Source: Promethearchaeota archaeon
GTDB taxonomy: Archaea; Asgardarchaeota; Lokiarchaeia; Sigyniarchaeales; SOKP01
Direction: 5' to 3'
Assembly (NCBI GenBank): GCA_048938895.1
Contig: JBHLLU010000056.1
Coordinates: forward strand, 1 to 24,913
DNA length: 24,913 nt
Made by a program: the position numbers and the translations under genes. Every line of letters starts with the position of its first letter. The stretch's first letter is position 1. Under the pieces are notes generated by a model. That model had not been told where the DNA came from. It ran no database searches and worked only from the letters and a program-made list of their open reading frames with translations. Below are positions 2,620 to 24,644 of the stretch, in pieces.

Positions 2620-2904
2620 ATTTTTTGCCCTACAAACATAATTATTTGTCTTTCATATAACTTCTTAAGTTTGATAAATGTAAAGTCTAAATTAAAAATA
2701 ATTCTAAATTGTGGTTTATAAAATTTAAATAAATTAATAGAATAAAGAGAAAAAAATTGAAGTACACAAATTTTTTGACATTTATGATAAGAGAACAATG
2801 ATTATTTATAAGACCACTTTAAAAAGATTTTTATCTATTGTAAATTTACTACAAACATTAAAGCTACGCTTTAATATAAACAATATATAAGGAGATTGTT
2901 AGAA

Positions 2905-3138
2905 ATGCCAGACAAATTTAATGTTGATATGACACTTCAAGAACTTCTTGATAATCCCGAATCAGAAAAATTCCTAAAGAGCCTTCCAGGAATGGCACAA
3001 ATGATTGAAAGTCCTCAAGCTCAAATGGCTATGGGCTTTTCACTTCGTCAAATTCAAGAATATTCTGAATCAATGGCTCCTGGACAATTCACAAAGGAAC
3101 AACTTGAACAAATTGACCAAGGATTAAAAGCTTTATAA
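2905..3138 (+). CDS. Small helical protein resembling the C-terminal helical appendage of some glycoside hydrolases (stand-alone)
   Basis: AGGAG at 2890-2894 about 10 nt before ATG 2905. Pattern TLQELLDNP...P...MAMGFSLRQI...TKEQLEQIDQGLKAL. Confidence 0.6.
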   Translation: MPDKFNVDMTLQELLDNPESEKFLKSLPGMAQMIESPQAQMAMGFSLRQIQEYSESMAPGQFTKEQLEQIDQGLKAL

Positions 3139-3165
3139 AATAGGTTAATCTCATAATTATCTCTA

Positions 3166-3240
3166 TTTTTTTTTATTTCTTTTAACTAAAATTATCTGTC
3201 TCATATGAGTAGATAATAAATAAAAAATAAAAGAAAAAAA
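3166..3240. terminator. Probable bidirectional terminator between convergent genes
   Basis: T-rich tract (3166-3183), imperfect inverted repeat ATTATCT..CTCATATGAG..AGATAAT (3191-3217) and A-rich tract (3218-3240), giving U-tracts on both strands. Confidence 0.55.
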
Positions 3241-3246
3241 TCAATT

Positions 3247-5502
3247 TTACTTTATCGGCCTACTATTGGCCTGAAATATAGGTCCTATAAACTGGGAATA
3301 TAATACACTATAAGCACTTTGATTAGACACGACAGCAATCATTTCAGCCTCTTTATCTGAATGAGGACATAGAATGACTTCTTCAGCATCACGAGTCAAT
3401 GCATAGAAATCTGATGGCGTCTGTAATTGTCGAAATTGTATATTACCAAGCTGCTTCATCTTAGTAAGTATCCCACCATACTGCTGAAGATCAAAATGGC
3501 TGGTGAGCATGAATCTCACAGCTTTCTTTTGAAAGGCGTATTCGGAAACTACCTGAAGTATCTCAGGAACCACTACAGGCATTACAATGATAATTGATGA
3601 TTTGACCCGATAAATAGCGTCTTTCATTACAGCAATCATGGCATCTCTTCCAATAACTTGCCATGTTGTTACTCTTGATATTTCTGGAATCGAGCTTGAA
3701 GCATTGTGAATATCGTTTAATTTATCTTCATTTGTTTCTCCAAGTTCAGTTGCATCATCAATGGAATTCATGAATTGTAAAGTAAAATCAGCAATTGCGT
3801 CTTTTACATTTTGAATGGTATCTCGAGTAGTATTTGAAAGACTGTTTTGGAGCGTTTTAGCGTTCTGTTCGTATTTTGTTTTATGATCTCCTAGCATGCT
3901 TGACAAGCTATTATCCATATCTTTTGCTTCAGCATCCCATAATCGAATTTCACTATCAATATTGTCTGAAGAATCGCGCTTAGCTTCTGTAAATTTAGTA
4001 TCTACTTCTCTCAACCAGTTTTCTTTAATGCCTTTTACCTCAGAGTCAAAATTTGTATAATGCCGTAAACTATTGTCTTTATGGATATTAATTGCTTCAT
4101 CATATTGTTTGTGATGTTGCTTTAATGAATTTTCTAATGAATCTTTTAGCTTTATATTTGTATCAGAACAATCCTTCACACCTGTTTGCAATGTATCGTC
4201 TACTTCGCCAGCTAAATCTGTAGCTAGATTTTCTAGTTGAGCATCTATAGTTTCTTTTGCTTTAAAATCGAGATCATTTGTTTCAGATTCTAAACCGTTG
4301 TTCTCATTTACCATAATATCTGTTAAGTCAGATTTTATTTGTTCGGTAGTCTCTCGAGTATTGGCGATATAATCATCGCTAGTTTTCGTGAAATCCTCTT
4401 TCATAGGTTTTGTGTAAACCAAAATATTCTGAATGGTTGTTTCATGACGTGCTTTATATTTCTTTTTTTTACCCATCCATAAAAATCCTTTTTTAGCCAT
4501 ATCTTCAGAAAAATCAGTGAATCGATTTGCATGTTCGAGTAAATTATCTATTAAAGTTAGTGTCATACTTTTAAATTCATTTGTTTGTTCATTTAGAGTT
4601 CGATGTCGATCATCAACGGTAGCTTTTAATCTGGTTTGTAGAGTATCTGTTGTATTTTTCACATGGATTGTATGTTCCTTTAGGATATTTGAAATCCTTT
4701 CTTTTAAATCAGAGACAACTTTATCCATACGTTCAAGATATTTTTCTAATATTTGTTCTAATCTAGGTTTAAGCTGATTAGCAGTAGTTTTATGTCTTTC
4801 TACATGTTCATCTAAATCCCTTTTAAGCTCTCTATCTAAATCTTCAACTCTAGTTGAGAAATCCCTTAATAAATTTCCAATTAGTTCAGTTAAATGATCT
4901 TTTGTACTATTTATTTCTGTTTCATACTTATTGATATGAGTAGTTGAAATATTCTGTAAATTTGTATTTAATACATTCAATACTGAATGAAGTCTTCCTT
5001 CAAGAGCTTTAGATGTTTCATTAAATCGATTAGTTGCTTTATCAATAGTATTCTTTTTTATAGAATTTTTTGAATCTGAATCTTCGAAGAAATTTTTTAT
5101 TTGAGAATCAACAGCATTTTCTACTTCTCCAAGACTTTTATTTTGTATATTTTCAAGTTTCTCAAAACGATTAGATTGATCAGTTAATATTGAATCTTTT
5201 ATTCTAGCAATTTCATTTCTAAATAATTCTGATTCACTTGTAAATAATTCAAAAAAAGGTTCTAAAGGAATAAATCGTGGAACAATGCCTTCAACCCTTT
5301 TTAGAAAATTCCTTTCGACCAACCAATCAGTAATTTCTACTATTGATTCGTATTGTATTTCCTCGTTATCTACTGCTAATGTCATAAATACCTCTGATAT
5401 GGATGCACGTGGAACTCTTAGATATGCTAAATAGACATTTATCTGCTCTTCGCTAAATCCATATCGAGTAAATACTTCCTTAGTGAATTCTTTTAATGAC
5501 AT
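3247..5502 (-). CDS. TrmB-like protein: N-terminal wHTH, ~520-aa coiled coil, C-terminal TrmB effector/PLD-like domain
   Basis: N-terminal YGFSEEQINVYLAYL...LVERNFLKRVEGIVPRFIPLEP resembles the TrmB HTH. C-terminal TWQVIGRDAMIAVMKDAIYRVKSSIIIVMP...RDAEEVIL resembles the TrmB C-domain. The middle is Pro-poor and heptad-rich. AAGGAG RBS upstream. Confidence 0.75.
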   Translation of the reverse strand: MSLKEFTKEVFTRYGFSEEQINVYLAYLRVPRASISEVFMTLAVDNEEIQYESIVEITDWLVERNFLKRVEGIVPRFIPLEPFFELFTSESELFRNEIARIKDSILTDQSNRFEKLENIQNKSLGEVENAVDSQIKNFFEDSDSKNSIKKNTIDKATNRFNETSKALEGRLHSVLNVLNTNLQNISTTHINKYETEINSTKDHLTELIGNLLRDFSTRVEDLDRELKRDLDEHVERHKTTANQLKPRLEQILEKYLERMDKVVSDLKERISNILKEHTIHVKNTTDTLQTRLKATVDDRHRTLNEQTNEFKSMTLTLIDNLLEHANRFTDFSEDMAKKGFLWMGKKKKYKARHETTIQNILVYTKPMKEDFTKTSDDYIANTRETTEQIKSDLTDIMVNENNGLESETNDLDFKAKETIDAQLENLATDLAGEVDDTLQTGVKDCSDTNIKLKDSLENSLKQHHKQYDEAINIHKDNSLRHYTNFDSEVKGIKENWLREVDTKFTEAKRDSSDNIDSEIRLWDAEAKDMDNSLSSMLGDHKTKYEQNAKTLQNSLSNTTRDTIQNVKDAIADFTLQFMNSIDDATELGETNEDKLNDIHNASSSIPEISRVTTWQVIGRDAMIAVMKDAIYRVKSSIIIVMPVVVPEILQVVSEYAFQKKAVRFMLTSHFDLQQYGGILTKMKQLGNIQFRQLQTPSDFYALTRDAEEVILCPHSDKEAEMIAVVSNQSAYSVLYSQFIGPIFQANSRPIK

Positions 5503-18822: not shown

Positions 18823-19809
18823 TTATACTACTTCTTTTGTTCTAAAATCATCTAAAATTTGCTCTAAATCATGATATAATTGGGGATAAAGTTTTGAAAA
18901 TAAGCGATACCAATCAAGCCCAATCATCCCTCCAGCAATAAAACATAGAATAACACCTATTAAAACAATTACTTCATGGTGTAAATTGAAAATTTCATTT
19001 GGTAAAAAGTCAGTCCCGTGAATGAACATGTTTAGTGCAATGGAATTTAATAAGATTCCAAAGGGATAATATAAACCTCTGGGAAATTTAAAAAATTGCA
19101 AAGAATCTTGAGAGATTTGATTGAATATAGGTGAAATTCTTGTTATTACTTGATCTTGTCTCTTTTCGATGAATTTCAATCTAACTACATCTCTCCTATC
19201 TCTTATAACTAGAAAGCTTCCACTAAATAGAAACAAAAATAACAATATCATTTCTACGGCAAGAAAGATCCTCAACTGTTTCCTTAAAATTTCATATTGG
19301 ATCATTATAAGTCGAATAAACCACAAAATAAGTGCGATTATAACAAAAATAATTCCTACAAATCCTTCATGCACATGATAATTCCTAATAATTTTACGCT
19401 TTCTTTTAGGATTAGAGTTATTCCTGATATATTTAATAATATATAAATTCAACCCTGGAGATAATATAGCCATACTTAATACAGCAGCAGAATGTCTTAT
19501 CATGCTCCAATTCCATACCCCGAGATCAATTTTAAATATTTCAAGTAAATAAATACCAATCCATACAAATGTTCCAAATGGTACTAAAATGTTAAAAATG
19601 GTTATATAATGGTTAAAATCGATGAGAAACAGTAGAGTAAAGAAGAAAAAAATAAAAAATGTAATTGTAATCATCCAATTTGCATTTACAGTAAATGAAT
19701 ACCATACATGGTGTTGATTATAATAAAAAAAGTTATATAAAACAAAATAACTTAGAATTAGGAGAAATAGAAGAATTACTGCTTTTAAAACAGACTTTAG
19801 TTCTTTCAT
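18823..19809 (-). CDS. Polytopic membrane protein of unknown function
   Basis: About 8 hydrophobic segments and a YHVHEG motif before one TM. ATG at 19809, with an alternative TTG at 19812. Confidence 0.7.
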   Translation of the reverse strand: MKELKSVLKAVILLFLLILSYFVLYNFFYYNQHHVWYSFTVNANWMITITFFIFFFFTLLFLIDFNHYITIFNILVPFGTFVWIGIYLLEIFKIDLGVWNWSMIRHSAAVLSMAILSPGLNLYIIKYIRNNSNPKRKRKIIRNYHVHEGFVGIIFVIIALILWFIRLIMIQYEILRKQLRIFLAVEMILLFLFLFSGSFLVIRDRRDVVRLKFIEKRQDQVITRISPIFNQISQDSLQFFKFPRGLYYPFGILLNSIALNMFIHGTDFLPNEIFNLHHEVIVLIGVILCFIAGGMIGLDWYRLFSKLYPQLYHDLEQILDDFRTKEVV

Positions 19810-19911
19810 CAAAATCTTAAATATAATTAGTTAAACTAATTTAAGAATGTTGATAACTATGATTGTAACATCAGTTAAGAAAAAAAGAATAAAAGATTCA
19901 GTTTAATTAAT

Positions 19912-20652
19912 TTAATCGGGAAGTAGTTTTGCATTGGTAATGACAACATCATTCTTAATTATCGACTTATACTTTTTTGAATCTAAAAATTTCTTGATTT
20001 CTTGACCTACCTTCGCTAAAATCCTATAATCTTGATCTTCACTAATATCGAAAATTATCATTGAATTTGCAGATTCTAAATCTTCCTTTGATAGTGAATC
20101 TGCTACATCAATTACCACTGAACTAGCACCGGCAACTGTACCAATTTTTTTAATCTCTTCTTCAAGAGAACCAAATGTAAAATAATTTCTACTTTTTCGC
20201 TCTATCTTTTCTATTAAAACACGTTCTAAATTCTGTCGAGAATTCTGGTCATAGAAGGCAGTTAATTCTTGAGCACATATCATTCGATACTTCCCAGAAA
20301 TCAAGTCGTTTTTATCACCAATGAAATCTATTAGATTATCATAATATTCTTGGTCGATATTCTGGAAGTTTTCAACATTTCTCACTAAATCTGTTAATTT
20401 AAAAATCAAATCATAATAAAATTTCAAGGTAGATTTAATATCTAATTTATCATTCATTTCTTTTATTTCAGGGTAGTATTTTTTAAGTATTAGGTTTATG
20501 TTATGGTTGAAATCAGCACATAACTTAGCGATTTCATTAATATCTTTTACCGATTTTTTCTTTAGTTGAATAAGGAGAGAAATATCCAAGGAAGATAACT
20601 GATCAAATACTTCCTTTATCTTTGTAGTATATTTTTTTTCTATATAGCTCAT
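19912..20652 (-). CDS. Hypothetical soluble, largely helical protein
   Basis: Long ORF with typical codon style. ATG 20652 (MSYIEKK) is preceded by AAGGGT. Confidence 0.7.
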   Translation of the reverse strand: MSYIEKKYTTKIKEVFDQLSSLDISLLIQLKKKSVKDINEIAKLCADFNHNINLILKKYYPEIKEMNDKLDIKSTLKFYYDLIFKLTDLVRNVENFQNIDQEYYDNLIDFIGDKNDLISGKYRMICAQELTAFYDQNSRQNLERVLIEKIERKSRNYFTFGSLEEEIKKIGTVAGASSVVIDVADSLSKEDLESANSMIIFDISEDQDYRILAKVGQEIKKFLDSKKYKSIIKNDVVITNAKLLPD

Positions 20653-20773
20653 ACCCTTATAAAATAGATAAAAATTCACCTATATAACATTATTTATTCA
20701 ATTAACGCTATGAAAAAGAGGAATATAAAGGTGAAATGAAACAGAAATCTTTACAGAGATTTTATTTTAAGGA

Positions 20774-21967
20774 TTAAAGGAAGAATATTTTCGTCGCGGT
20801 CATAACTGCTCCACTAATAATTGGGACTGTAAAATTATCATTTATTCCAATGGGTAATAATTCAATTAATGGGGCTGCAATCCCACCGGAAATTAAGATA
20901 ATTAAAGCAATATCAATAGAAGAATAAAGAATGAATCCGAAGATAATAACTGATCCAATATAGGCAAGAGTTCCCTCAAGTGTCTTTTCGAATATCTTAT
21001 GGCGACCATATGCTAATCCAAATATTTTACCAAACATATCACCAAAAACTAAAAAAACTAAGGCAGTAATAGCAATTTCAATTTCAAAGAAAAGCACTAT
21101 AATAAAGGTAGATAATAAAAAAATTGTCATGGAAGAGAACTTTTTTTCTTCACCTTTTCTAAAAATTGCTTTTGTTTTTTCTGTTAGCAAAACATTTGTT
21201 TGCTTGTGAAGAAATCGAAAAATATCAAGAGCTATAAAACATAAACTTACAATTCCTATAACCATAAGCCCAAGTTGAACATCTATAAAATAAAATATGA
21301 GAAATAGCATTGATAGAGGTCTTATTGCTACCCTCCACCAATTGGCTAAGAATTCCTCATCAATAATTACCAATTTCTTCTCAGTAATCACTTTATACAA
21401 CCCAATACTACCAATGTGCACAAGAACTATTACAAAAAAAATGTTAAAACTACTTGTAGGATAGAGTATAAATACAGAATATCCAAGCAATGGAAATAGT
21501 ACCATTGGGAGCAAGCTACCTGCTTTTGATATATAAGTAAAAATTATAACAAGGATTAATAAAAAGATTAAAACGTAAAAAATTCCAAAACTAATAGTTA
21601 AATAATTAACAAGATAATAAAGAAGTAATCCCGTCGCAGTGGCATTACCTTGACCACCCCGGAAATTTAAATAAAAAGGAAATACATGCCCGATAATTAC
21701 AACTAAACCACTAATCTGAATGAAAATAAAATCTGCACCTAATGAATATGCTATTAACATTGCTAATAATCCCTTTAACATATCGTATAAAGCAGTTGGA
21801 ATAGCATAGGATAGACCTAAAACTTTATACACATTTGAAGTTCCAGCGTTCTTGGTACCTTCTTCTCTAATATCAATCCCTTTTATTTTGCCGAAGATAT
21901 ATGCAGGTAATATAGCACCAAGTACATATCCTATTATTATACTCAATGCTCCTATAAAAATATTCAT
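20774..21967 (-). CDS. Fusion of PlsY-like glycerol-3-phosphate acyltransferase and CTP-dependent lipid kinase (phytol/diacylglycerol/dolichol kinase-like), copy 1
   Basis: PlsY motifs DIREEGTKNAGTSN, DMLKG and GHVFPFYLNFRGGQG. Kinase motifs WWR, FRKGEEKKFSS, FGDMFGKIFG..YGRHK..KTLEG and NDNFTVP. ATG 21967 follows a GGTG RBS. Confidence 0.82.
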   Translation of the reverse strand: MNIFIGALSIIIGYVLGAILPAYIFGKIKGIDIREEGTKNAGTSNVYKVLGLSYAIPTALYDMLKGLLAMLIAYSLGADFIFIQISGLVVIIGHVFPFYLNFRGGQGNATATGLLLYYLVNYLTISFGIFYVLIFLLILVIIFTYISKAGSLLPMVLFPLLGYSVFILYPTSSFNIFFVIVLVHIGSIGLYKVITEKKLVIIDEEFLANWWRVAIRPLSMLFLIFYFIDVQLGLMVIGIVSLCFIALDIFRFLHKQTNVLLTEKTKAIFRKGEEKKFSSMTIFLLSTFIIVLFFEIEIAITALVFLVFGDMFGKIFGLAYGRHKIFEKTLEGTLAYIGSVIIFGFILYSSIDIALIILISGGIAAPLIELLPIGINDNFTVPIISGAVMTATKIFFL

Positions 21968-22151
21968 GATACACCACTTACGCAAATATTAATCTATACT
22001 TGGATTGAAATAATATAAACATATATGGTAGAATACTATATAATATAAAAAAAGAAGAAATTCACTTAATCAATATTATATACTTTTTAACTCCTTTTTT
22101 TTAGCCTATATTCAATTATAATTAGAGGTTACTAATTAAAAACTTCTAATT

Positions 22152-23360
22152 TTAAAGACCAAATGCTATTAAAGCGGTCATAGTTGAGCCGCTTATTATC
22201 GGGACGGTAAAATTATCATTGATTCCTAACGGAAGTGTTTCAGAAAGAGTTGCTGCAACACCTCCTACTATCAGAATAAACAAATTGATATCCAACATAG
22301 TATAAAGAACATATATACTAATAACTACAATACCTATATACGCAAGCGTTCCTTCAAGAGATTTATCAAAATATTTATGTCGTCCAAATGCTAATCCAAA
22401 TATTTTACTAAACATATCACCAAATGTAAGAAAAACCAATGCAGTAATAGCAATTTCAATCTGAAATAGTAATAGTATTATAAATGTAGAAATTAAGAAG
22501 ATAGTCATTGAGGAGAATTTCTTTTGCTCATCTTTTCTAAAAATCACCTTTATTTTTTCCGTTAACAGCGCATTCGTTTGTTTATGAAGAACTCTAAAAA
22601 CATCTAGAGAAATAAAGCATAAACTAACTATTCCTATTAGAATAAGAGCTACTGTTCTAGAATAGACAAAATAAAATAATAAAAACAGAAGAGCAACCGG
22701 TCTTATCGCAACTCTCCACCAGTTAGATTTAAATCGTTCGTCTTCAATCTTAAACAATTTTAATAAAATGATAATATATATTCCAAAACCGAACAGGAAA
22801 GTAAGGATAATCCAGGAATAAATGTTATAAGGGTTATCAGGATAAAGTAGGTAAATTGTATATCCATATACGGGTAATGGGAAAACCATTGGCATGGATT
22901 TTTTAACTCTGGAAGCCATATAAAATATCCCATAAATACAGCCCAAAAATATTATTATGTAGAAAAATTCAAAACCAAACCAATATTGAGTGAACATATA
23001 AAACAACATTAGTCCACTAGCAGTCGCAATCCCCTGTCCCCCGCGAAAATTCATATAAAAAGGTAAAATATGCCCAACAATCGCTGCCACTCCACTAAGG
23101 TGAGCAAATGCAATATTGGCACCCATGGCAAGGGCAATAAATATGGCGATTATGCCCTTTAATGCATCATAAAACGCAGCGATAAGCCCGTAATGAAAGC
23201 CTAAAACAAGTGTAAGATTTGAAGTTCCAGCATTTCCTGTTCCCTCTTCCCGTATATCGATCCCTTTCAATCTCCCTAAAAAATAACTAGGATTAACTGT
23301 ACCTAAAAGGTATCCGATTAGAATTCCCAAAATTCCAATTAATACATGAAATAAGTCCAT
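22152..23360 (-). CDS. Fusion of PlsY-like acyltransferase and CTP-dependent lipid kinase, copy 2 (tandem paralogue)
   Basis: DIREEGTGNAGTSN, DALKG and GHILPFYMNFRGGQGIATA, then FGDMFSKIFG..FGRHK..KSLEG and NDNFTVP. Confidence 0.82.
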   Translation of the reverse strand: MDLFHVLIGILGILIGYLLGTVNPSYFLGRLKGIDIREEGTGNAGTSNLTLVLGFHYGLIAAFYDALKGIIAIFIALAMGANIAFAHLSGVAAIVGHILPFYMNFRGGQGIATASGLMLFYMFTQYWFGFEFFYIIIFLGCIYGIFYMASRVKKSMPMVFPLPVYGYTIYLLYPDNPYNIYSWIILTFLFGFGIYIIILLKLFKIEDERFKSNWWRVAIRPVALLFLLFYFVYSRTVALILIGIVSLCFISLDVFRVLHKQTNALLTEKIKVIFRKDEQKKFSSMTIFLISTFIILLLFQIEIAITALVFLTFGDMFSKIFGLAFGRHKYFDKSLEGTLAYIGIVVISIYVLYTMLDINLFILIVGGVAATLSETLPLGINDNFTVPIISGSTMTALIAFGL

Positions 23361-23471: not shown

Positions 23472-24644
23472 ATGAACCCAAAAGAACGTGTTAAAGCAGC
23501 AATTCGCTTCATTAATCCAGATAAAGTTCCTGTTTTTAATCTAGTAGCAGGAGATGTTTTTCCCTTACCTATAACATACTCTAAGAATTGGAAACCTGGG
23601 TGGAATGAAGGAGAAGAAGAATTATTTCCTCACATTAGAGGTGTTTTCGAATGGAACAGACCTAATTGGGCTAATAAAAATCCAGATTATGATGGAAATA
23701 AGTGGAGAAAAATACCACACGAAGAAATAGATGAATGGGGTTGTATATGGAATATGAAAGGAAATGATCAAAATATGGGTCATCCTGGGAGAGCTTCATT
23801 GCTTAATTGGAAAAATTACGATAGGTATATAGAAAAATATAATCCAAATGCTAATGATAGGACCAGATTTGAATTCGCTCTTAAATTAAAAAGTACTCTT
23901 AATGAGGATCTTTACTTAATGTTAATATTACCAACACTTGGACCATCTCAGGTCGTAGCTGCTATGAGAGGTTTTAATACATATTTAATGGATCATAAAA
24001 TTCATCCACAAGAACTTAAACAAGCACTAGAACTAGTCGCAGATTATCATGTTAAATTAATGAAAGCTTCTTTTAGATTTGGATTAAATCCCGATGGAAT
24101 TTGGTTAGTAGATGACTTAGGAGAACAAAAAGGACCATTTTTTGGTCCAAAATTATTTAAAAAACTTTATGAGTCTTCTTATAAATATATTATTAATGAA
24201 GCCCATGCTCTTGGAATAGAAGTACATCATCATTGTTGTGGAAAAATTGATCCACTATTACCTGTTTTAATAGAATGGGGCCTTGATTCCATTGAGCTTG
24301 ATAGTCCAAGAATGAGTGGATATCCAGACTTAAAACCTTATCGTGGCAGAATAATGTTTTGGTCCTGTGTTAATATTCAGTCTATATATACTCAAGGCAA
24401 ACCAGAAGAAGTAGAACGAGAGGTATGGCATATGATAAGGAATCTTGGTACTAAAAATGGTGGTTTTGGAGCGTATTTTTATCCCACTCCTAAGGATCTA
24501 AATACCCCACGAGAGAATATTAAAGCTTTTGAGAGAGGTCTTAAAAAATATGGAGTTTATTCAAAAATCCCTCCCCATTGGTGGGATTACCCAATAAACA
24601 AAGTATGGAATAATTTTGATGTCCCATCTCTTCCACCGTTATAA
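23472..24644 (+). CDS. Uroporphyrinogen decarboxylase / MtaA-CmuA methyltransferase superfamily protein
   Basis: Motifs MNPKERV...PDKVP, DEWG, MRG, DDLG, HHHCCG (Zn-type HxCG) and GKPEEVEREV. Confidence 0.82.
   Translation: MNPKERVKAAIRFINPDKVPVFNLVAGDVFPLPITYSKNWKPGWNEGEEELFPHIRGVFEWNRPNWANKNPDYDGNKWRKIPHEEIDEWGCIWNMKGNDQNMGHPGRASLLNWKNYDRYIEKYNPNANDRTRFEFALKLKSTLNEDLYLMLILPTLGPSQVVAAMRGFNTYLMDHKIHPQELKQALELVADYHVKLMKASFRFGLNPDGIWLVDDLGEQKGPFFGPKLFKKLYESSYKYIINEAHALGIEVHHHCCGKIDPLLPVLIEWGLDSIELDSPRMSGYPDLKPYRGRIMFWSCVNIQSIYTQGKPEEVEREVWHMIRNLGTKNGGFGAYFYPTPKDLNTPRENIKAFERGLKKYGVYSKIPPHWWDYPINKVWNNFDVPSLPPL

Follow-up and report, generated by a model that had tools for sequence, protein, structure and literature searches.

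Two genes in tandem on the minus strand of the window, the 24,913-nucleotide stretch of DNA analysed here, each encode a membrane protein of about 400 amino acids that joins an N-terminal PlsY-family domain to a C-terminal domain resembling lipid kinases. The sequence-only reading had described two paralogues of this length and domain composition, and both open reading frames are present. The features of the locus are:

20774..21967, minus strand: gene A, PlsY/kinase-like fusion of 397 aa, counted from an ATG at 21967; stop codon at 20774-20776
21371..21967, minus strand: PlsY-family domain of gene A, about residues 7-205 of the 403-aa frame
20777..21370, minus strand: putative CTP_transf_1-superfamily lipid-kinase-like domain of gene A, about residues 206-403
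22152..23360, minus strand: gene B, paralogous fusion, 402 aa, 59% identical to gene A
22752..23360, minus strand: PlsY-family domain of gene B, about residues 1-203
22155..22751, minus strand: putative lipid-kinase-like domain of gene B, about residues 204-402
19912..20679, minus strand: soluble protein of about 250 aa (255 aa), on the strand of gene A and 94 bases downstream of it

The open frame of gene A covers 20774..21985 and would yield 403 aa if started from the TTG at 21985; because the database copy (P0005, the window's own protein on record) has 397 aa, translation probably begins with the ATG at 21967. The identity of the two whole proteins is distributed unevenly: 70.7% (140/198) between the kinase-like halves versus 45.5% (92/202) between the PlsY halves, which bears out the earlier impression that the paralogues are more alike in the kinase half. 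The PlsY half of gene B is the more diverged one, with a leucine at the place of Arg45 of bacterial PlsY and a phenylalanine where gene A has His190. Since the divergence lies mainly in the PlsY half, the paralogues probably differ in acceptor or lipid.

The attribution to an archaeon is also supported: the nearest relatives bear the names Promethearchaeota, Loki-, Hod-, Hermod- and Thorarchaeota, and archaeal genes on the contig show conserved synteny. A homologue of the protein encoded at 19912..20679 occurs in 50 of 76 loci with a fusion; it may be a partner or a case of conserved synteny only. For this protein we obtained no Pfam match, no usable Atlas match and no PDB sequence match. In 32 of the 76 loci the fusion has a carboxylesterase-like alpha/beta hydrolase gene (BD-FAE) upstream. 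Among 14 public runs containing part of the stretch, none is listed as RNA.

The main lipid pathway of the organism is the archaeal ether-lipid pathway: its genome encodes GGGPS, a UbiA-family prenyltransferase, geranylgeranyl reductase and CarS, the last as a separate gene with PF01864 matches of 69 and 52 bits on contig C5. The genome encodes six further kinase-like paralogues, one of which (253 aa) clusters with geranylgeranyl reductase, GGGPS and UbiA prenyltransferase genes; its relationship to the fused domain is remote (48 versus 254 bits with the same profile; BLASTP E 0.003). Six Fe-ADH_2 candidates for G1PDH turned out to be ordinary iron alcohol dehydrogenases (NF002022 25-32 bits on four and none on two, cut-off 413), and the best GpsA candidate matches the Rossmann N-terminus only (44 bits, cut-offs 257-473). 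A glycerol-phosphate dehydrogenase of either type was thus not recognised in this genome, which means not found rather than absent.

The PlsY-family half and its acceptor site

The assignment of the N-terminal halves is direct. PF02660 (G3P_acyltransf) matches those of genes A and B with 117.3 and 85.9 bits (cut-off 24.1), and the sequence of Aquifex PlsY (PDB 5xj5) is matched with E-values of 3.6e-18 and 1e-18. PlsY was the sole match found by Foldseek for the full-length model (5xj7: E 3.1e-06, TMt 0.67, 192 columns), in agreement with the seven-helix PlsY fold. The PlsY equivalog model TIGR00023 scores both proteins at 98.9 and 90.8 bits, under its cut-off of 137.2.

Residue conservation was counted in 98 unique fusions, using the numbering of Aquifex PlsY for this half. 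Residues T44, N46, K54, H100 and G110-G111-Q112-G113 of gene A correspond to S35, N37, R45, H92 and G102-G103-K104-G105 of the Aquifex enzyme. In PlsY, His92, the G102-G103-x-G105 loop and Ala107 form the acyl-phosphate site, termed the phosphate hole (PMC5700162, accessible text). This site is kept in the fusions, the window genes included: H92, G102, G103 and G105 are found in 98/98 and A107 in 94/98. Many further positions of the PlsY half are invariant across 27 diverse copies.

The acceptor side looks different. The clamp for the phosphate of glycerol 3-phosphate (G3P), consisting of Ser35, Arg45, Lys104 and Asn180, is 89-95% conserved in 7,288 PlsY homologues (PMC5700162, Table 2). Among the 98 fusions, Lys104 is replaced by glutamine in 77 and kept in 6, arginine occupies the place of Arg45 in 24 and serine that of Ser35 in 18, and Asn180 has no conserved counterpart; at the S35/R45/K104 positions gene A reads T, K, Q and gene B T, L, Q. 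Motif 3 (H177, N180), whose His177 binds the 2-OH of G3P, could not be aligned consistently in the fusions, and the HMM alignments to 5xj5 end near residue 165, short of this motif. His190 of gene A was aligned with the canonical His177 in one MAFFT run but not in a larger one; its column holds H in 49, Y in 36, F in 12 and L in 1 of the 98 fusions, gene B having F. The place of Thr41, the acyl-carbonyl binder of PlsY, is variable, which could mean that the donor is something other than an acyl-phosphate. A threonine one position earlier is invariant in 96/98 fusions and might take over this role.

The fusion resembles bacterial PlsY (Aquifex aeolicus, 5XJ5-5XJ9) in Pfam family, seven-helix fold and phosphate hole, but differs from it by the second domain of about 200 aa, the Ser35/Arg45/Lys104/Asn180 clamp that is not kept, a motif 3 that does not align consistently and the low TIGR00023 score. 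These residue comparisons establish, at the level of sequence, that the N-terminal half is a PlsY-family transferase which keeps the acyl-phosphate hole and has an acceptor pocket unlike the bacterial G3P clamp. The assumption that this half acylates G3P is not safe, given that the clamp defined for PlsY (PMC5700162) is not kept, and the acceptor is uncertain because of this remodelling.

The kinase-like half

Placing the C-terminal half is less straightforward. A Pfam and NCBIfam scan of both C-terminal halves up to E≤10 gave no direct family match, including PF01148 and PF01864, and Foldseek of the domain model returned nothing at E≤0.001 (best match E 0.094). The evidence is transitive. Stand-alone relatives of about 190 aa exist, 3 of the 54 listed carrying the JGI name dolichol kinase, and among relatives at E-values of 1e-23 to 1e-5 weak matches to PF01148 (CTP_transf_1) appeared in 9/19 and 11/36 of those scanned, two of which exceeded the 24-bit cut-off. 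A profile of the domain, 197 positions long, matched TmCdsA (4q2g) with E 0.014; the match spans positions 80-156 and thus the GD..G..GR..K[ST]LEG stretch. The domain model (pLDDT 87.3) retrieved, from 48,161 chains, CdsA 4q2e first (Z 9.9, 174 aligned, rmsd 6.8) and CarS 5guf second (Z 7.7, 97 aligned, rmsd 2.6); as a third, unrelated chain reached Z 7.2 and such Z-scores can arise by chance for helical bundles, this ranking is supportive rather than decisive. Taken from profile, fold and transitive evidence, the C-terminal half is predicted to be a member of the superfamily of CTP-using intramembrane enzymes that includes CdsA, CarS and the dolichol, phytol, prenol and diacylglycerol kinases, with the motifs of the kinase branch. 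Of the two domain families named in the sequence-only reading, the acyltransferase was thus recovered outright, whereas the CTP_transf_1 assignment rests on this indirect support.

The motif residues named in that reading (GD..GRHK..K[ST]LEG..DN) are real: D316, G323, G327, K334, E337, G338, E375, D383 and N384 are invariant or nearly so in the 98 unique fusions. Over the whole domain, R218, E279, G338, E375 and N384 occur in 98/98, D316, G323, G327, E337 and D383 in 97/98, and K334 in 96/98. The motifs of this half in gene A are WWRVAIRP, E279, FGDMFGKIFGLAYGRHK, KTLEG, E375 and NDN. The aspartate of the GD motif aligns with an aspartate-bearing stretch of TmCdsA, and the CTP-dependent kinase activity of Dgk1p requires such a conserved aspartate, D177 (PMC2459266, accessible text). 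For the prenol kinase PfPolK, a CTP clamp of Arg29-Lys30-His33 has been proposed (PMC10849223, accessible text). The N-terminal arginine of the fused domain, Arg218, would stand at the place of this clamp; where the stand-alone relatives read R-K-x-x-H (K in 31/36, H in 25/36), the fusions read R-V-x-x-R, and the equivalence of residues to PfPolK and Dgk1p is one of motif, not of alignment.

Two cationic residues adjoining the catalytic aspartate are specific to the fusions, namely K320 (96/98) and H329 (80/98), with A/E/S and I/T in the stand-alone relatives. Together they would suit an anionic substrate. To our knowledge, no member of the kinase branch phosphorylates a carboxylate.

The fused domain is like the CTP-dependent lipid kinases (Sec59/DOLK, VTE5, FOLK, PfPolK, Dgk1p) in core size, helix count and the GD..G..G..K..K[ST]xEG and DN motifs, and unlike them in its R-V-x-x-R, its own Lys320 and His329 and the attached PlsY. 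With CdsA (4Q2E/4Q2G) and CarS (5GUF) it appears to share the CTP-binding core by profile and fold, but the match is weak and partial, PF01864 is missing and the domain is shorter than CdsA.

Distribution, donor supply and origin of the fusion

PlsX, a supplier of acyl-phosphate to bacterial PlsY, was found neither in the organism's own genome (98.7% complete) nor in any of the 151 Asgard genomes sampled, which supports the earlier idea of a PlsX-independent supply. PF02660 is present in 41 of the 151 genomes. The 16 holders in the window's family all have frames of about 400 aa and thus fusions; among the 25 from other families no frame exceeds 288 aa, which corresponds to stand-alone PlsY. 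DegV/FakB scored over its cut-off in 24 and Dak2 in 22 of the 25 genomes with stand-alone PlsY, whereas in the fusion family DegV was found in 0/26 and Dak2 in 1/26 genomes; this complementary pattern sets one clade against about six families and comprises few independent events. DegV was likewise not found in the organism's own genome. Two Asgard genomes (G107 and G135) show a row of Dak2, DegV and PlsY genes on one strand. Because the fusion family has only the fusion and no DegV, the fused domain may be said to occupy the place of a fatty-acid kinase. FakA/FakB of Firmicutes and others resembles it in proposed role only, as a source of acyl-phosphate from free fatty acid for PlsY. The two systems share no homology, Fak being soluble, ATP-dependent and two-component (Dak2, DegV) and the fused domain integral-membrane and presumably CTP-dependent.

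The fusion is patchy even among close relatives, being present in 16 of the 41 genomes of the window's own family and missing from a 99%-complete genome of the same genus, whereas a PlsC-like protein occurs in 38 of these 41 genomes whether the fusion is present or not. Because of this patchiness the fusion looks like an accessory or salvage gene rather than a core route with a bearing on the lipid divide. Of the lipid genes proposed for comparison, plsX was not found, PlsC-like genes are widespread in the family, and G1PDH and GpsA went unrecognised in the genome.

The architecture persists in Asgard archaea and in six or more named bacterial phyla; the 16 bacterial copies found come from Aminicenantes, Latescibacterota, Calditrichota, Thermotogota and others. 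In a FastTree phylogeny with midpoint root, the Asgard copies group in a single clade lying within the bacterial copies, which contradicts the view of the fusion as an archaeal invention and makes it look bacterial in origin. In 4 of 5 bacterial host genomes the fusion coexists with canonical PlsY (178-181 bits) and PlsX (311-360 bits), and DegV was found in 3 of the 4 bacterial hosts tested; in those bacteria the fusion is not a replacement. A strong GGGPS/PcrB match (131-162 bits) occurs in 3 of the 5 bacterial fusion genomes.

Among bacterial loci with stand-alone PlsY, three (L100, L118, L163) have a DegV+Dak2 gene and a fourth (L092) a DegV gene directly upstream of it, L100 and L092 carrying the PlsY type nearest to the N-terminal half of the fusion. 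Fak genes thus precede PlsY directly in several bacteria and two Asgard genomes and are missing where the Asgard fusion is present. The neighbours of eight bacterial fusion loci revealed no shared lipid operon; an acetate-kinase-family gene lies directly upstream of the fusion in L089, as one suggestive neighbour only. A split form, with a stand-alone variant PlsY beside a stand-alone kinase-like gene, was seen neither in two loci (one each from genomes G001 and G003) nor in 79 loci around PlsY relatives, where every kinase-like match was a fusion.

Possible reactions of the fused protein

Our tentative preference is that the fused kinase-like half makes acyl-phosphate from free fatty acid for the PlsY half, as an accessory route. 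Each gene would encode one polytopic membrane protein with two active domains. The kinase-like half would phosphorylate a lipid within the membrane, using CTP, and the lipid phosphate would be passed on to the PlsY half, which would move the lipid moiety to an acceptor and release phosphate. The substrate would most likely be a free fatty acid, converted to acyl-phosphate, so that the fused domain would take on the job of PlsX or of the FakA/FakB fatty-acid kinase; the acceptor would probably be a different alcohol or a glycerol phosphate whose mode of binding has changed, and the route would serve scavenging or remodelling. That the fused kinase supplies the phosphorylated donor, as had been proposed from the sequence, fits the DegV/Dak2 complementarity in Asgard archaea and the conserved cores of both halves, but sits less well with the bacterial hosts, most of which keep PlsX and PlsY. 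The Fak genes directly upstream of stand-alone PlsY in bacteria, the fusion-specific cationic residues and the hydrolase upstream of many fusions also speak for it. The more specific claim, in which the domain is an integral-membrane CTP-dependent fatty-acid (carboxylate) kinase that hands acyl-phosphate to a PlsY with a rebuilt acceptor pocket and thereby opens a third route independent of ACP, PlsX and Fak, is possible, and we hold it with somewhat less confidence.

The kinase-like half might instead phosphorylate a lipid alcohol such as geranylgeraniol, phytol, dolichol, mono- or diacylglycerol or a dephosphorylated archaeal ether lipid, which would make the protein a salvage or hybrid-lipid enzyme. 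We consider this somewhat less likely than the fatty-acid reading. It agrees with the known chemistry of the family, since PfPolK, VTE5, FOLK, DolK and Dgk1p all act on hydroxyls, namely those of dolichol, phytol, farnesol/geranylgeraniol and diacylglycerol (PMC10849223, PMC2459266, accessible texts). The three relatives named dolichol kinase, the GGGPS/PcrB matches in bacterial hosts, the non-conserved Thr41 and the largely lost charged G3P clamp point in the same direction, as does the 253-aa paralogue in the ether-lipid cluster; that paralogue, however, is only a distant relative of the fused domain, and the threonine next to the Thr41 place might stand in for it. The halves could be coupled in two ways: either a prenyl or other lipid monophosphate sits in the PlsY phosphate hole and is then transferred, or the PlsY half esterifies a non-phosphorylated alcohol that the kinase half then phosphorylates. 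The chemistry of PlsY is acyl transfer from a mixed anhydride, and we know of no precedent for this fold transferring an alkyl group from a prenyl monophosphate. Moreover, the Asgard complementarity and the Fak-PlsY operons point to fatty acids.

It is improbable that the C-terminal half is a CdsA/CarS-like cytidylyltransferase making a CDP-lipid, be it from the lysophosphatidate-type compound produced by the PlsY half or from phosphatidate. All relatives of solved structure are such enzymes, TmCdsA being the profile match and CdsA and CarS ranking first and second by fold. Language-model look-alikes are annotated automatically with terms like phosphatidate cytidylyltransferase, which at a score of 0.89 is no more than a lead. 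But the CdsA match is limited to the shared CTP-binding stretch, the genome has a separate CarS whose family PF01864 does not match the fused domain, and the domain ends in E..NDN where CdsA presumably has its C-terminal signature. A cytidylyltransferase would also leave PlsY without a source of acyl-phosphate in a lineage lacking PlsX and DegV. Slightly less probable still is that one half only is catalytic, the PlsY-like half being a degenerate anchor or lipid-binding module for the kinase or the reverse, with no channelling. The loss of canonical G3P-clamp residues, the sub-threshold TIGR00023 scores of both proteins and the state of gene B (L for Arg45, Q for Lys104, F for the histidine at gene A position 190) would fit a decaying domain, but the strict retention of His92 and the glycine loop, the many invariant PlsY-half positions and the persistence of the architecture across archaeal and bacterial phyla disfavour it, because such conservation is not expected of a decaying domain.

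Asgard PlsY homologues have repeatedly been cited as a hint of bacterial-type ester lipids in the archaeal ancestors of eukaryotes (PMC6431249, PMC6737245, PMC13400652); the accessible portions of these papers do not address the source of acyl-phosphate without PlsX or the double-length PlsY of one family. In the openly accessible literature searched we found no mention of a PlsY/kinase-like fusion. With the fusion in one family, Fak genes beside stand-alone PlsY elsewhere and a changed acceptor site, the question of the donor for Asgard PlsY is now testable. Its bearing on the lipid divide is tempered by a fusion that looks bacterial in origin, is patchy and occurs together with an archaeal ether-lipid gene set that is complete. 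Should the kinase half prove to be a fatty-acid kinase, a well-known superfamily would gain a new enzyme activity, and scavenged fatty acids could serve one Asgard family and several bacterial phyla as material for ester-linked or mixed lipids.

The two fusion genes and their PlsY half

Each of two open frames in the window encodes a PlsY domain (N-half) joined to a domain resembling lipid kinases (C-half):

20774..21985, minus strand, gene A, open frame of 403 aa read from a TTG
22152..23360, minus strand, gene B, open frame of 402 aa

The frames are separated by 166 bases, and because the recorded protein of gene A has 397 aa, the ATG at 21967 is its most likely start. The two proteins share 59% identity across 373 residues. 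When cut at residue 205, they are identical in 45.5% (92/202) of the N-halves and in 70.7% (140/198) of the C-halves, which bears out the observation of the sequence-only reading that the paralogues are more alike in the kinase half.

Gene A and gene B matched PF02660 (G3P_acyltransf) with 117.3 and 85.9 bits at a Pfam cut-off of 24.1, and the solved PlsY of Aquifex aeolicus with E-values of 3.6e-18 and 1e-18, respectively. An AlphaFold model of the full length, built from a 27-row alignment (mean pLDDT 79.8), matched PlsY structures by fold (5xj7, E 3.1e-06, TMt 0.67). Both proteins are below the NCBI PlsY equivalog cut-off (98.9 and 90.8 vs 137.2 bits). In the Aquifex enzyme, acyl-phosphate is bound by His92 and Thr41 together with the backbone of residues 104-107, the phosphate of G3P is clamped by Ser35, Arg45, Lys104 and Asn180, and its 2-OH is contacted by Ser142 and His177 (PMC5700162).

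These residues were mapped via HMMER alignments onto 98 unique fusions (82 Asgard, 16 bacterial). His92 and the glycines 102, 103 and 105 are present in 98/98 and Ala107 in 94/98; the place of Thr41 varies, the preceding residue being Thr in 96/98. Judged by these residues, the donor site is intact, whereas the acceptor clamp is not retained. The place of Lys104 is occupied by Gln in 77/98 and by Lys in only 6/98, Arg45 is kept in 24/98, and at Ser35 a Ser is found in 18/98 and a Thr in 62/98. Gene A carries T, K and Q at the places of Ser35, Arg45 and Lys104, and gene B T, L and Q. Stand-alone PlsY proteins in the same alignment (n=61) have Ser35 in 56, Arg45 in 57 and Lys104 in 53 sequences. 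At motif 3 (His177, Asn180) the alignments of fusions to PlsY disagree; His190 of gene A corresponds to Phe in gene B. It is therefore not safe to assume that the PlsY half acylates G3P. Given that the donor site is kept and the acceptor clamp changed, the N-half is a conserved transferase of the PlsY family and very probably can still bind a lipid phosphate, but the label "glycerol-3-phosphate acyltransferase" is not justified. This is the name carried by the full-length relatives (60-95% identity), for which only PF02660 is precomputed.

Assignment of the kinase-like half

The domain architecture proposed from the sequence was confirmed by PF02660 for both N-halves, but a Pfam and NCBIfam scan of both C-halves gave zero matches even at E<=10, and their kinase-like nature is indicated by profile, fold and relatives. 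A word-indexed search yielded stand-alone relatives of about 190-213 aa (E 1e-23 to 1e-5), three of which carry the JGI name 'dolichol kinase' and 9/19 of which gave sub-threshold matches to PF01148 (CTP_transf_1). With a profile of the C-domain and its relatives, 11,785 cluster representatives were retrieved at E<=0.001; among the best 150 of these, 22 proteins of 389-416 aa matched in their C-terminal half, and PF02660 was present in 4/4 of those scanned. PF01148 was matched by 11 of 36 proteins scanned, two of them above cut-off. The C-domain profile also matched Thermotoga CdsA (4q2g) with E 0.014, spanning FGD..a..G...GR......K[ST]LEG. When a model of the C-domain only (pLDDT 87.3, pTM 0.82) was compared with 48,161 chains, CdsA 4q2e came first (Z 9.9, rmsd 6.8 over 174 aligned) and the archaeal CarS 5guf second (Z 7.7, rmsd 2.6 over 97 aligned). 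An unrelated chain was third at Z 7.2, and scores in this range, those of CdsA and CarS included, can arise by chance for helical bundles. The top Foldseek match of this model had E 0.094.

Within the C-domain of the fusions, Arg218, Glu279, Gly338, Glu375 and Asn384 are conserved in 98/98, Asp316, Gly323, Gly327, Glu337 and Asp383 in 97/98 and Lys334 in 96/98, and this core is also kept in 36 stand-alone relatives. Conserved in the fusions only are Lys320 (96/98) and His329 (80/98) beside the presumed catalytic Asp. The stand-alone relatives carry R-K-x-x-H where the domain begins, similar to Arg29-Lys30-His33 of the malaria prenol kinase, the proposed 'charged clamp' of its CTP site (PMC10849223), whereas the fusions have W-W-R-V-x-x-R-P instead. 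Yeast Dgk1p is a CTP-dependent diacylglycerol kinase with a 'cytidylyltransferase domain' and a required conserved Asp (PMC2459266), of which Asp316 is likely the counterpart. As several weaker lines agree, we conclude from sequence and predicted fold that the C-half is a member of the CTP-using CdsA/CarS/lipid-kinase superfamily; by motif, it most resembles the kinase branch.

An identity of the fused domain with CarS was rejected, since the window's genome (G000) encodes a separate CarS (PF01864, 69 and 52 bits, contig C5). Five further proteins of this genome (343-390 aa; contigs C67, C65 and C28 and a tandem pair on C99) join a kinase-like C-terminus to an unrelated membrane N-terminus of about 170 aa. 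Together with the two fusions and a gene on contig C101, this superfamily branch has eight members in the genome besides CarS.

Occurrence of the fusion and its lipid gene context

Full-length relatives are found in Promethearchaeota, Loki-, Hod-, Hermod-, Thor- and Odinarchaeota MAGs. When species-representative genomes were scanned with patterns as seeds, 75 loci were obtained, mostly Asgard, with several records labelled bacterial that include Latescibacterota and Caldithrix. Further bacterial holders came from a second scan: Aminicenantes, Cytophagia, a PVC-group bacterium, Thermotogae and Stahlbacteria. As the scans rely on short patterns, this range is a lower bound. The fusion is thus not restricted to Asgard archaea, 16 of the 98 unique fusions being bacterial. 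In a FastTree phylogeny, all 82 Asgard rows group in a single clade (support 99), which midpoint rooting places within the 16 bacterial rows. This topology suggests a bacterial origin of the fusion and a single entry into Asgard archaea. It fits the inference by Coleman et al. that archaeal PlsY came from bacteria (PMC6431249). Within Asgard archaea the gene multiplied: 7 loci other than the window carry tandem pairs and 4 carry tandem triples, and gene A and gene B each have their own orthologue, in identical tandem order, in another genome (locus L017).

The genome of the window (4.65 Mb, 98.7% complete, 7.5% contamination) has no PlsY domains other than those of gene A and gene B, and searches for PlsX and DegV found neither. 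Its ether-lipid set looks complete and archaeal, with GGGPS, a UbiA-family prenyltransferase, geranylgeranyl reductase and CarS. In the genome check proposed earlier, a PlsC-type protein was present, PlsX was not found and, GGGPS notwithstanding, neither G1PDH nor GpsA was recognised among the best candidates tested. The PlsC-type protein has 555 aa and two tandem acyltransferase domains (TIGR00530, 162.6 bits).

Contig C53, 28578-30245 (locus L096, 8578-10245), minus strand, double PlsC-type protein beside the tryptophan operon
Contig C101, 11000-19000 (locus L093, 1751-7014), minus strand, ether-lipid cluster

The cluster consists, in this order, of a URO-D/MtaA-like gene (394 aa), a kinase-like CTP_transf_1 paralogue (253 aa), geranylgeranyl reductase, GGGPS (PcrB, 196 bits) and UbiA prenyltransferase; the 253-aa gene may encode a prenol or ether-lipid kinase. 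A double-PlsC frame of about 560 aa occurs in 38/41 genomes of the window's family vs 16/41 (10/24 high-quality) for the fusion, which is lacking in a congeneric genome that is 99% complete. The fusion gene is therefore accessory, and it does not form an obligatory pair with the PlsC-like protein.

Around the fusion and, for the last entry, in the ether-lipid cluster, the following genes were found:

19912-20679, minus strand, 255-aa soluble protein without family match, downstream of the fusions; a homologue is directly downstream in 50/76 loci
18823-19812, minus strand, 329-aa polytopic membrane protein without family match, downstream of the fusions; kept in 9/76 loci
23472-24644, plus strand, URO-D/MtaA-like paralogue next to the PlsY-kinase pair
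Locus L093, 5830-7014, minus strand, URO-D/MtaA-like paralogue adjoining the kinase-like gene in that cluster

Prolyl-tRNA synthetase and TFIIB recur in 44 and 43 of the 76 fusion loci, so the neighbourhood is largely inherited synteny. The 255-aa protein and a 571-aa carboxylesterase-like alpha/beta hydrolase (BD-FAE, 32/76 loci) are possible partners. The two URO-D/MtaA-like paralogues are 53% identical, with a homologue near the fusion in 5/76 loci. In a bacterial locus (L089), an acetate-kinase-family (ASKHA) gene (2885-3952, plus strand) stops 37 bases ahead of the fusion on the same strand.

Possible source of the phosphorylated donor

Among 151 genomes sampled across the Asgard phylum, PlsX was found in none and PF02660 in 41. 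In the window's family there are 16 holders (15/25 and the window's genome), and all of their frames, apart from fragments, are fusions of about 400 aa; the other 25 holders, from seven further families, have no frame longer than 288 aa and hence stand-alone genes, some scoring up to 180 bits over the entire profile. DegV (FakB) was above cut-off in 24 genomes, all within these 25, and in 0/26 genomes of the fusion family; the 100 other-family genomes without PlsY gave just two weak sub-threshold matches. Dak2, the kinase domain of FakA, was present in 22/25 holders of stand-alone PlsY vs 1/26 fusion-family genomes. In two genomes, Dak2, DegV and PlsY are consecutive on the same strand (G107, C17:12237-14606; G135, C16:109522-111879), a row that looks like a fakA-fakB-plsY operon. 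Genomes of the other families have up to 15 DegV matches and up to three stand-alone PlsY genes (six in one genome). Because DegV and Dak2 accompany stand-alone PlsY and the fused domain is found where DegV is missing, Asgard PlsY is accompanied throughout by a kinase that could produce its donor: Fak or, in the window's family, the fused domain.

In bacteria, a DegV+Dak2 gene is directly upstream of PlsY in three loci (L100, L118, L163) and a DegV gene in another (L092); the PlsY of L100 and L092 is the stand-alone type nearest to the fusion N-half. The bacterial fusion is an addition and not a replacement, since canonical PlsY (178-181 bits) and PlsX (311-360 bits) coexist with it in four of five genomes searched, the fifth being a 0.8-Mb fragment, and DegV in 3/4 tested.

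The likeliest mechanism, proposed here tentatively, would be a relay between the two domains. The C-half would take CTP at the cytoplasmic face and phosphorylate a membrane-embedded lipid, the lipid phosphate would shift laterally to the N-half and enter its phosphate hole, and the N-half would hand the lipid part over to the hydroxyl of an acceptor, releasing phosphate. The lipid would most likely be a free fatty acid, which is favoured by the complementarity with Fak and by the Fak-PlsY operons. This complementarity is the strongest support for the earlier proposal that the fused kinase supplies the PlsY donor, although it reflects few independent events and does not directly reveal the substrate. 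FakA is related to dihydroxyacetone kinase, so there is precedent for a switch from alcohol to carboxylate in a kinase family, and Lys320 and His329 would suit an anionic substrate.

To our knowledge, every characterised kinase of the C-half family acts on a hydroxyl. The main rival, possible but doubtful, is that the kinase half, like its relatives, phosphorylates a lipid alcohol, and that the intermediate shared by the two halves is prenyl-phosphate or an acylglycerol. A strong GGGPS/PcrB match in 3/5 bacterial fusion genomes is consistent with such an isoprenoid link. It is less likely that the C-half is a cytidylyltransferase or that the fusion contains a dead domain.

That Asgard archaea have PlsY homologues is known and widely discussed (PMC6431249, PMC6737245, PMC13400652). 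In the literature searched, no mention was found of a second, kinase-like domain on the PlsY of one Asgard family, of the altered G3P clamp in that PlsY, or of stand-alone Asgard PlsY genes accompanying Fak genes. If the relay indeed starts from a free fatty acid, the fused kinase would represent a new enzyme activity.
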